The notes: generated from the letters alone by a model not told the origin. A stretch of DNA of 63,977 nt, filler included, from Octopus bimaculoides (GCF_001194135.2; 7 parts of 6 records of this genome joined end to end with filler, not necessarily neighbours in it); one strand, 5' to 3'; positions 899 through 56,745 are shown, counted from the first letter of the whole stretch. Numbers and translations are program-made.

Positions 899-1082
899 CA
901 ACATGGAAAATACCTTAGGAATGAGAACTCAGGCTCGAAATTTCTCAAAGACACCTGATGAAGGCTGGAGGTTATATCAGCCGAAACGTTGTGTTAAAAA
1001 CAAACAAGATGAGGACAAATAACCGTCAATTGTAAATAACGTAAATAATGTACATAATACCTCATCTCTTAAATATACAACA
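899..1082 (+). mobile_element. ~180-bp non-autonomous hammerhead-bearing element, copy 1
   Basis: Near-identical to the reverse complement of 36965-37130 and 56565-56745. Confidence 0.85.
950..995 (+). ncRNA. Minimal type-I hammerhead ribozyme, family A copy 1
   Basis: GACAC-CTGATGA-A-GGCTG-gaggttatat-CAGCC-GAAA-CG-T-T-GTGTT; helix I GACAC/GTGTT, helix II GGCTG/CAGCC, palindromic ACGT helix III; predicted cut between 990 and 991. Confidence 0.8.
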
Positions 1083-2082
1083 GAGGGAGATCATTACCTT
1101 GATATGTATACCACTTATATATATGTATATATCCTCGTAGATGAAACTGACTTCCTCGTCATTGTTGTAGGATGATTAGGAGTTTTTTTCTTCTCAGAAA
1201 AGAAGTGTATGTTATGTTTGAGACTCTTAGCTTTGCATGCAGATCATACTTTTGTGGAGAACTTTATGGAGGCGTAAAGGACTGTTTGACAGAATAAATG
1301 TAGTCCCAACCGTCAGTAAAGTTCCCGTTACCAAAGGAGATCATACATTTTCATTGAAATATCTCCCAGTGTAGAGGTGAATTTTAAAAACAAAAATAAA
1401 CATTCATTAATGCCAATAGTTTGTAAGTCTCATAAATCATCTGATCATTTGGAATGCCTTAGAGACTTCATTTTTAAGCATTTCATCATGGATGAACCAG
1501 CTTTGGGGAGTTCATAATTTCTGAAATGATAAATACGATTCAGTAACTATTTGTAAATAATGCCATTTGTTGAAATAAGAATACTGACAAGAAATTTGTC
1601 TTGGACGTCATTCGCGTAATAATTAGTTATTCGAGTAAATGAAAGCATATTTAATGAGAAAACTAAACAAAAATCTAAATTATATTCACACATGGTGTAG
1701 AACAAAAAAAAAATACAAATTTGGTCGATGACTAATATGTTGTTTATTATTGAAAATTCTCGGCGTTGTTCACTGTTGTGTCATTCAATTTAATCTAATA
1801 TTACATTACATAATTTGTTTCCTTTGCTGTTTATTTCACTGGTGCTAAGAAGTATGAAAGAGTCCTGTTTGTTATTCTAACTTGATATTGTTAAGATTTT
1901 GATTAATCATTTCTTCACTTTATTAAATTCAACATCTATGTATCGTATTTGATGAATTGTCAATCTATAAATTATATTTAAATTAGAGATGTGGTAAGAG
2001 AAAACAATTCTCATTATGGTATTTAGTCTAACTTATATTTTCTGTTGTGTTTCAAGCAACAAATAAAGTATTGATTTTAAAT

Positions 2083-2205
2083 TATGGCACAAGGCCAGCA
2101 ACTTGGTGGATGGGGATTGTCGGTTACATCAACCCTAGTGCTGAAATGGTACTTATTTTATCGAACCCGAAAGAATGAAAGGTAAAGTTGACCTCGGCGG
2201 AATTT
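2083..2205 (-). mobile_element. tRNA-derived SINE, family A (partial)
   Basis: ggtacttatttatcga.ccgaaag.atgaaagg.aaag.tgacctcggcggaatttg shared with many copies in the window. Confidence 0.75.
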
Positions 2206-3353
2206 GGGCAGCACCTAAAATACTGGTTTCAAGCTTTGGCACAAAATCAGTTATTTCAGAGAGAGAGAGAAATCGATTTCATCTGGTACTTACAATTGAT
2301 ACTTATTTTATCGGTTTGAAGAGGGAGAAATGCAAATTCTCTCTCAGCTGAATTTGGGCAACAACTAAAATAACAAATTGTGCATGATCTGTGTTGGCAA
2401 GAATTCCCATGTAGGAGAATATATTGAAGAGTCCAGTGAGCTGATTTGCGATGAAGAAGAACTAAAATAAGTATTATTCCATTATTCACAAGATAAAAAA
2501 AAAACTGAATAAAGGAATTAAAACGAATGTGTTTGCGTATATAAAGGACCTTTACTATTAGGAGAGAGTATGCGTAATGTGAAAATTGTATGATGGAGAC
2601 TGAATTAAAAAAAGGAAGAGACGGAACATGTAACAAAATTTTGTTAGTGGTTAGTTAAATTGAAAAGAATATCGGCCGGGCAAGTATGAAGTGAAGTTTG
2701 AGATAAGTGAAAATGCAAGCCATAGGCATGAAATGGACAAAGGATTCATACAAGATAATAGTGACGTTCAGCAAACAAAATTGAAGGAGGAAGGAGATTT
2801 AAAGGAAATGGTAGAGAATCATGCAGAGACGTGAGGTCTGCTAAGATTGGTCGAGAATAAAAGGCTGATATACAGTTAAGACACATGGACACTAAATTGA
2901 CAAATTGACTGCTTTGTAAATAGAATGTCAGAAACTTACATTAGTTTGTGTAAGGTGATTCAATAGTGGTGGGTATAATAAATGAAACATTGAACACGCA
3001 AACCGCATAACAGTCATATGCGCAAGCATACACACTACCTGTGTCTTTCAGTATCTTTGCGTGTGTGTGTGTGTGTGTGTGTGTGTGTGTGTATTTAGAC
3101 ATAAAAATACCACTTAAAATCTGATATAAGAACGAAAATAAGTTTTCAGTATAGAAAGCGGTACATTAAATGATGTTGGTTGTGATTGCTGGCCTTGTTA
3201 GCATCAAAATGTTGCAGAATTCTACTGATTGATAAAGACATAAACATTACCTTAGTACTCTTTGTCTTCTTCACGTATTCTTCCCTCTCACTTTATGTGT
3301 CTACTCTCCTACTTTAGAGTGTATTTTAATATTCATCTTACACATGCTTCTTG

Positions 3354-3473
3354 CTTGTCCTATCTATCGCTTGTCCTATCTATCGCTTGTCCTATCTATC
3401 GCTTGTCCTATCTATCGCTTGTCCTATCTATCGCTTGTCCAATCTATCACTTGTCCTATCTATCGCTTGTCCT
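3354..3473. repeat. 16-bp minisatellite (CTTGTCCTATCTATCG) x ~7.5
   Basis: Units start at 3354, 3370, 3386, 3402, 3418, 3434, 3450, 3466. Confidence 0.95.
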
Positions 3474-55390: not shown

Positions 55391-55590
55391 CATCATCATC
55401 ATCATCATCATCATCGTTTAATGTCCATCTTCCATGCATACATGTGTAGGATGGTTCACAGAGCTGGTCAGGTGGAAAAACTACCCTATGCTACTTTGTC
55501 TGCTTTGGCAGGATTTTTATGGCTGGATGCTCTTCCGAACACCAACCACTCTGCAGAGTGGACTCAGTGCTTTTTACCTGGCACCAGCAC
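55391..55590 (-). mobile_element. (GAT)n-tailed repeat, same family as 52397-52590
   Basis: Shared (cat)n-cgtttaa and ggctggatgc.cttcc motifs. Confidence 0.55.
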
Positions 55591-56051
55591 AGGCGAGGTT
55601 TGTTTTGAGGAAACATATATACACCATTCTGCTTAAATAACGGAACTGCAGATACAATATCCCTACATATCTCATGTCTGTATTTCATATCGTCTCTATA
55701 ATAACTATTACTTAAACATTTTCTTGTACCGTCTCTGATGATGGGATATATAAAATATCCTGGAAACAGCTGTAAGACCTTCTCTTTATAGATGTTATGA
55801 AAACTATTCACAGCCTTGGATTTGATTTTTTTTACCTCATTCTGTTAATTTATATATATATATATATATATATATATATNNNNNNNNNNNNNNNNNNNNN
55901 NNNNNNNNNNNNNNNNNNNNNNNNNNNNNNNNNNNNNNNNNNNNNNNNNNNNNNNNNNNNNNNNNNNNNNNNNNNNNNNNNNNNNNNNNNNNNNNNNNNN
56001 NNNNNNNNNNNNNNNNNNNNNNNNNNNNNNNNNNNNNNTATATGTATATAT

Positions 56052-56155
56052 ATCATCATCATCATCGTTTAACATCCACTTTCCATGCTGGCATGGGTGG
56101 GGCAGTTTGACTGAGGACTGGTGAGCCAGAAGGCTGCACCAGGCTCCAATCTGAT
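56052..56155 (-). mobile_element. (GAT)n-tailed repeat, partial
   Basis: catcatcatcgtttaacatccactttccatgctggcatgg. Confidence 0.55.
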
Positions 56156-56564
56156 TACATATAATTATATATATACATACACAGTAATGCTGAATATCTT
56201 TCTCCTCCATATGTTCACCTACCCCATTCCAGAAATGAAACTATCCAAGGGAACAGTGAGTAACAAAGTCTTCTACTTATTAAGGGCCAATCTTGTCCCT
56301 TGTTTAAAGTGGTTTTTGTCTGTCTTTGACCCATTTCATTGGTTGTCCAGCAAGCTCTTGACCAATGGTGTGTTTGATTGTAGACGGTGCATAGCAGGTG
56401 ATATAAGTTAGACAAGTGTTCCCTATGTCTCCAGGATCTCGGTTGGTCTGCAGAGAGTGTGGGTTTAATGTTGCTAGTGTGGGTAGGGTCAAGGAAGGAT
56501 TTCTATGGGCCTTTATTCAACACATGCACATTCACATATAGAAAAAAATTGGTACCCCATTGGT

Positions 56565-56745
56565 TATACAATTCTATATTTAAGAGATGAGGAATTATTT
56601 ACATTATTTACATTATTTACATTTGACGGATATTCGTCCTCATCTTGTTTGTTGTTAACACAACGTTTCGGCTGATATACCCTCCAGCCTTCGTCAGGTG
56701 TCTTGGGGAAATTTCGAACCTGGGTTCTCATTCCTATCGATGTTA
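56565..56745 (-). mobile_element. ~180-bp hammerhead-bearing element, copy 3
   Basis: Reverse complement aligns to 899-1082. Confidence 0.85.
56657..56702 (-). ncRNA. Minimal type-I hammerhead ribozyme, family A copy 3
   Basis: Minus strand GACAC-CTGACGA-A-GGCTG-gagggtatat-CAGCC-GAAA-CG-T-T-GTGTT; the only core change is at variable position 7. Confidence 0.8.

Follow-up and report, generated by a model that had tools for sequence, protein, structure and literature searches.

The DNA analysed here (the window; 63,977 nucleotides, filler included) is animal-like, microsatellite-rich sequence of ~35% GC with 4,865 N, and its repeats appear to resemble those of octopus. Within it lie three copies of a repeat, which we refer to as family A, at 876–1081 (+), 36975–37132 (−) and 56567–56776 (−), hereafter copies 1, 2 and 3. 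They are ~160–205 bp long and 88–92% identical, and their spans replace the extent of 180 bp initially given to the element. Each copy carries a minimal type-I hammerhead motif, at 950–995 (+), 37066–37111 (−) and 56657–56702 (−), respectively, with predicted cuts at 990/991, 37071/37070 and 56662/56661. Our scan of the window confirmed the initial annotation in placing all three motifs, on these strands, with their helix I, CTGANGA, GAAA and GTT. In every copy helix I (GACAC/GTGTT) consists of four Watson–Crick pairs and a G-U pair, and CTGANGA is followed by one extra A, helix II (GGCTG/CAGCC), GAAA, the palindrome ACGT and the triplet GTT. The five base pairs first described for helix II are present, but the helix is of 6 bp when the next G-U is counted. 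In copy 3, which served as the reference for placing reads and contigs, C3 is at 56697, N7 at 56693, the extra A at 56690, C11.1 at 56670, G12 at 56669 and the palindrome at 56666–56663.

A descriptor scan of the window gave four matches, the three of family A and one of a second family, while 100 dinucleotide shuffles of the window gave a mean of 0.06 matches of any kind and none with a palindromic helix III. The three motifs differ, as had been noted earlier and as the alignment bears out, only by a G>T change in loop II of copy 1 and a T>C change at N7 of copy 3. Among the three copies 2 of 46 motif columns are variable, while the flanks common to them vary at 24 of 113 columns (Fisher p = 0.009); the 12 core positions taken alone are invariant (0/12), which is not significant (p = 0.12). 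Rfam returned no hammerhead among the 150 matches listed of 165 at E ≤ 10, those listed being microsatellite-driven and of miRNA type. Because monomer folding gave weak z-scores (−1.1 to −2.2) and a lowest-energy fold other than the hammerhead is predicted, we left folding out as support. A 9-bp stem around an AT-rich short tandem repeat is predicted 3′ of the ribozyme in copies 2 and 3 (56585–56645 (−) in the latter).

The copies differ at their 5′ ends. Copies 1 and 3 start in (AAT)n runs behind two different upstream elements, and copy 2, which is shorter at this end, starts ~50 bp later, without the (AAT)n start. The window showed no target-site duplication of at least 7 bp, and the flanks share no word of more than 6 bp across any copy. 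All three copies are solo, 19–36 kb apart, and none is in tandem.

The window also holds several other repeats. The second hammerhead family has one copy at 55611–55790 (+), with its motif at 55731–55778, and another at 11615–11811 (−); the two are 73% identical and the palindrome of helix III is 8 nt long. The copy at 55.7 kb passes the scan and that at 11.6 kb has a damaged helix II. Open reading frame (ORF) fragments occur at 600–900 (+), between (AAT)n runs and directly 5′ of copy 1, and at 57259–57780 (−), 61724–62061 (+) and 31114–31383 (+); we take all four to resemble the ends of R4/Dong-type LINEs. Pfam gave no significant match for three of these four fragments scanned, and nothing significant for six ORF fragments of the window. 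Another dispersed family of ~180 bp lies at 17696–18268, including a three-unit tandem at 17744–18229, with copies near 2072, 6309, 9003, 15764, 16164, 25661, 35558 and 46056; the window scans found no hammerhead in it.

Probable Link to Penelope-Like Elements

No ORF of a Penelope-like element (PLE) was found beside any of the three window copies, the 5′ side being masked in the contig placement. The window does contain a broken remnant of a PLE reverse transcriptase (RT) at 44233–44705 (tblastn E 5.5e-12), with an internal stop codon, 7 kb from copy 2. This remnant has its own, different 3′ region, and blastn found the encompassing 43736–44944 (−) unrelated to family A. Since no ORF adjoins the copies and the remnant has a 3′ region of its own, the parent of family A was not found in these searches. 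The remnant also includes a half hammerhead core near 43770, without GAAA, a (TTC)n run and, on the opposite strand (~44165–44230), a short stretch carrying an RT-like motif.

Outside the window, a search with a hammerhead-core pattern that omits helix I found 31 metagenome loci in 16 distinct contexts. Family A itself is not among these loci, whose similarity to it is limited to the 38-nt motif, where it arises by construction. Eleven of the 31 have tblastn matches to PLE ORFs and 20 do not; the matched loci represent about five families, four loci having supplied the queries. At nine of the 31, in unrelated animal DNA, the same core lies 105–306 bp downstream of the PLE ORF matches and on the same strand. 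One of the loci (L022) has a PLE ORF of 789 aa with an RT and a GIY-YIG domain (RVT_1 match, E 2.5e-6, just short of Pfam's curated cut-off, plus a GIY-YIG match). In L022 and L020 the hammerhead is followed by a further ORF of 400–470 aa, which in L020 is placed before the RT ORF. In L011 one hammerhead occurs twice, on opposite strands and ~400 bp apart, at 1324–1353 (−) and 1735–1764 (+), an arrangement reported for PLEs in the excerpted text of PMC4209133.

Abundance, Ends and Flanks

Four of 24 public runs listed were placed on the region around copy 3 (56480–56846): X4 (organism A, presumed DNA) and X14 (organism B, library kind unrecorded), both treated as DNA contigs, and the RNA runs X21 and X22. 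The insect-metagenome runs X19 and X20, with small word shares, were excluded. The stretch 56739–56846 was masked as a repeat in the placement, leaving the 5′ side of the family outside the readable region.

Contigs on family A numbered 33,404 in X4 and 34,262 in X14, that is, in two organisms, with 3,162 and 3,689 partial-fit contigs, respectively. Thus the element initially described as three-copy is so within the window, but the contig counts show a very abundant family. In X4 the unique flank had a depth of ~42 and the element a summed depth of several million, a ratio of ~2e5 that is no copy number; in the window there is one copy per 20 kb. The genome total is likely in the range of thousands to about 10^5 copies.

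Loose contig ends pile up at 56566–56572, the 3′ end of the element (the family end being at ~56566–56567), and past this end consensus agreement in DNA is 0.41–0.43, which indicates that the 3′ flanks are unrelated insertions. Among 16 contig pieces listed, all 11 that reach the 5′ side stop within 75 nt, so that side is repetitive, and most pieces extend hundreds of bases past the 3′ end. The contigs of X4 and X14 therefore depict a large family of mostly solo copies with unrelated 3′ flanks. Two joints in X14, from a list of 12 among 53 in which the kind of joint is unstated, apparently go back from 56721 to 56568, with depths of 117 and 67 (single contigs have ~22–57). These look like rare head-to-tail dimers of ~160 bp with two ribozymes, in a few low-depth contigs. 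Pattern scans of viral contigs gave no matches and those of prokaryote genomes no family-specific matches.

Transcripts and Apparent Editing

The RNA runs X21 and X22 come from one study, and ~6% of each was read. Family A accounted for 617 (X21) and 563 (X22) reads per million, and 73% of the placed reads continue into unlike sequence. First mates, those with variant letters included, were equally divided between the strands, which suggests unstranded libraries. A pile-up of 5′ read ends or circular junctions had been suggested as a check for ribozyme cleavage. Neither was seen: RNA starts and ends do not pile up on the element in X21 or X22, which as two fragmented libraries give weak evidence, and there is no go-back joint among the best 15 of 91 joints in these libraries, which were not circle-enriched. 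The RNA-supported joints among those 15 are two, both of them strand switches.

RNA and DNA differ in the kind of variation they carry. Over 56567–56739, A>G and T>C changes accounted for 40 of 83 and 45 of 80 of the places that vary in RNA versus 4 of 35 and 4 of 33 of those in the DNA contigs (p ~1e-4 and 2e-5), while transversions were alike (12 and 10 versus 9 and 7); a few loci dominate family A RNA, and contig depth under-weights private variants in the DNA of this comparison. Eighteen of 40 variant rows listed have shares of 7–26% in RNA and <3% in DNA. Variation of the A>G type reached 13–16% of RNA reads at the extra A and 15–16% at an A of helix II. At 18 candidate sites the depletion of a 5′ G characteristic of ADAR was not significant (1/18 versus 23/91, p = 0.12), and that of a 3′ A gave p = 0.03, uncorrected. 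The excess fits A-to-I editing of both orientations, as judged from pooled copies without individual-matched DNA. Penelope is among the repeats for which editing has been reported (excerpts of PMC5625713 and PMC9068888).

Variation in the Ribozyme and Its Flanks

Does the ribozyme decay more slowly than its surroundings? We compared four CpG positions of the ribozyme (C11.1, G12, C15.2 and G16.2) with the four flank CpG positions listed, within the 40 of 98 variant rows listed, so that the comparison bears on CpG sites. Mean variant shares in ribozyme and flank were 13.9% and 13.6% in X4, 12.8% and 15.0% in X14, 21.0% and 23.3% in X21, and 19.8% and 23.8% in X22, and in none of the four runs was the difference significant (four versus four sites). 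G12, the general base of the hammerhead, is replaced by A in 10.6% (X4) and 8.8% (X14) of DNA depth and in ~24% of RNA reads, so intact cores are no commoner among expressed copies. In such shares, contig depth gives recurrent changes more weight than private mutations. N7 is split three ways, with T at 74%, A at 14% and the remainder C in X4, and T at 53% and A at 9% in X14; being a free position, it was counted towards selection on source elements. In the metagenome loci helix I, which was absent from the search pattern, pairs over at least 3 bp in 10 of the 16 distinct contexts, versus 1.74 after shuffling, and none of 10,000 shuffles reached 10. Pairing of helix I across unrelated elements supports selection on source elements only.

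The initial annotation held that the ribozyme has been under selection, and had set a comparison of mutation in core and flank beforehand as the result that could overturn this. That comparison went against it, in that the ribozyme CpGs listed, G12 included, vary as often as those of the flank. What survives is selection on source elements, for which the pairing of helix I speaks, while equal CpG decay tells against selection on the inserted copies. We conclude that selection likely acted on source elements and not on inserted copies.

Discussion

Minimal hammerheads in the pseudo-LTRs (pLTRs) of metazoan PLEs were described by Cervera and de la Peña (2014; PMC4209133, cited here from excerpts), and the PLE-type minimal hammerhead first proposed for family A is borne out by the match to their consensus. 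The features in common are a type-I topology, a short helix I and a long helix II, CUGANGA plus one extra base, a G10.1–C11.1 pair, GAAA, a loop-less palindromic helix III, an AU-rich 3′ flank and large numbers of mostly solo copies. All three copies have the core CUGANGA and GAAA in type-I order and ACGT as the palindromic positions 15.1–16.1 with little or no loop 3, and family A has both the unpaired base between positions 9 and 10.1 and the G10.1–C11.1 pair. The extra base is thus standard in the PLE consensus (PMC4209133), and the analogy to the CChMVd viroid once offered for it is unneeded. The ACGU/GUU variant of family A is found in 12 of the 44 published rows examined, both rows of Lottia gigantea included, although the family A sequence itself is absent from those 44 alignment rows (PMC4209133). 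Family A differs from this consensus in that its 5′ flank is not U-rich (PMC4209133), and whereas the published motifs lie in pLTRs, family A is known without a linked parent ORF. According to the same excerpts, most minimal hammerheads of this kind occur singly, probably as remains of truncated PLEs, and a single motif was inactive and dimers weakly active in vitro.

We conclude that family A is a high-copy dispersed repeat and most probably the 3′ pLTR tail of a PLE. Mobilisation by a PLE, as first suggested, is the best reading, on the basis of the core found downstream of PLE ORFs in the metagenome loci. The chances that the source is an autonomous PLE are about even, and a short non-autonomous derivative, as the initial annotation had it, is a more tentative candidate. 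Work by Luense et al. (RNA Biol) reportedly deals with PLE hammerhead dimers. In a source element with two tandem pLTRs, the two ACGU palindromes would pair to form helix III of a double hammerhead (compare PMC4209133), which would cut after GUU and release a unit RNA. The PLE reverse transcriptase and GIY-YIG endonuclease would spread the family, and reverse transcription from the 3′ end with an early stop would leave solo tails. A solo copy alone could not form helix III and would be inert, so that it would decay neutrally, and most inserted copies are likely inert. Solo copies would be transcribed passively inside host transcripts, where opposite-facing ones would likely form dsRNA open to ADAR editing. 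In the energy model the double hammerhead (−22.3 kcal/mol) has no advantage over two monomer folds (−25.2 to −28.8), in line with the weak dimer activity reported in PMC4209133. Against the reading as a PLE tail stand the lack of an adjoining PLE ORF at the three window copies, the greater conservation of the motif than of its flanks in the window (p = 0.009) and the variation of G12, which is slightly below the flank CpG mean.

Could family A instead be an active non-LTR retrozyme, its tandem units transcribed, cut as dimers, circularised and re-inserted, with the solo copies as their offspring? Animal non-LTR retrozymes are likewise short, non-coding and low in GC, with a type-I hammerhead and a likely dependence on PLE enzymes (PMC7229834; 10.64898/2026.07.22.740005, both as excerpts). 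A 2026 preprint describes retrozymes as tandem units tied to pLTRs and their monomers as dispersed (10.64898/2026.07.22.740005), which agrees with this reading, and the X14 joints would then be ~160-bp head-to-tail dimers. However, those joints represent few copies and are also expected from partial tandems of PLEs. Non-LTR retrozymes are defined by tandem units, each with a ribozyme, and by circular RNA (same two sources), whereas the window copies are solo and neither processed ends nor circles were seen in X21/X22. In addition, most RNA reads run on into unlike sequence, the RNA-supported joints listed switch strands, and classical retrozymes carry canonical type-I motifs (PMC7229834) whereas the motif of family A is minimal. 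We therefore consider a retrozyme unlikely and find the term "retrozyme-like" of the initial annotation unsupported, given solo copies 19–36 kb apart, RNA ends that do not pile up and no go-back joint among the best 15 of 91. A bolder version of this idea is that the few ~160-bp dimers are the live source loci of a minimal-hammerhead retrozyme. It would cut itself into small circles and would be the origin of a repeat that ranks among the commonest in the genome, while A-to-I editing within its helix II and at its extra A (13–16% of reads) would restrain it; we regard this as distinctly improbable.

A different origin would be a composite, (TAA)n-anchored SINE, in which a LINE moves a tRNA-like head and the ribozyme segment as one, with the hammerhead as a captured passenger. 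A tRNA-like sequence of 70 bp at 56777–56846 (−), which we presume to be like a SINE head, does precede copy 3, ending in the (AAT)n run 5′ of it, cut by an assembly gap and single in the window, and the contigs that reach the 5′ side stop within 75 nt (11/11 among the 16 pieces), as a repetitive side would have it. But in copy 1 another upstream element precedes the same (AAT)n start, and copy 2 lacks both, so that the tRNA-like head occurs in one copy of three; ARAGORN finds no tRNA gene, the 3′ end bears neither a poly(A) tail nor a simple-repeat one, no target-site duplication is clear, and separate elements meeting at (TAA)n runs provide a simpler account. Such a SINE is very unlikely, and host co-option, with the three copies kept intact at these loci as ribozymes, is extremely so. 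The absence of differences at the 12 core positions is what co-option would predict. Yet if the four ribozyme CpGs vary independently, all of them should be retained in ~55–58% of copies, so three intact copies would arise by chance with a probability near 0.17; expressed copies, with G12>A at ~24%, show no excess of intact cores, and a comparable single minimal hammerhead gave no cleavage in vitro (PMC4209133, in excerpt).

With the PLE tail as the preferred reading, family A also resembles the hyper-edited families of 3′ fragments of chicken CR1 and lizard Penelope (PMC5625713, in excerpt) in its numerous short copies, all of one 3′ part, the capacity of opposite orientations to pair and the A>G/T>C excess in RNA, although for family A editing is inferred from pooled copies without matched DNA. 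The comparison literature further included excerpts of PMC8557442, PMC6765202 and PMC13282606, and a narrow literature search found no published description of family A.

As interpreted here, family A adds another family to the PLE minimal hammerheads described across metazoans in 2014 (PMC4209133, as excerpted). Its abundance suffices to tell selection on source elements apart from the neutral decay of copies, and this distinction bears on whether PLE hammerheads are needed for retrotransposition. Its RNA, moreover, looks heavily A-to-I edited, and family A may thus be a sizeable source of dsRNA in the host animal.
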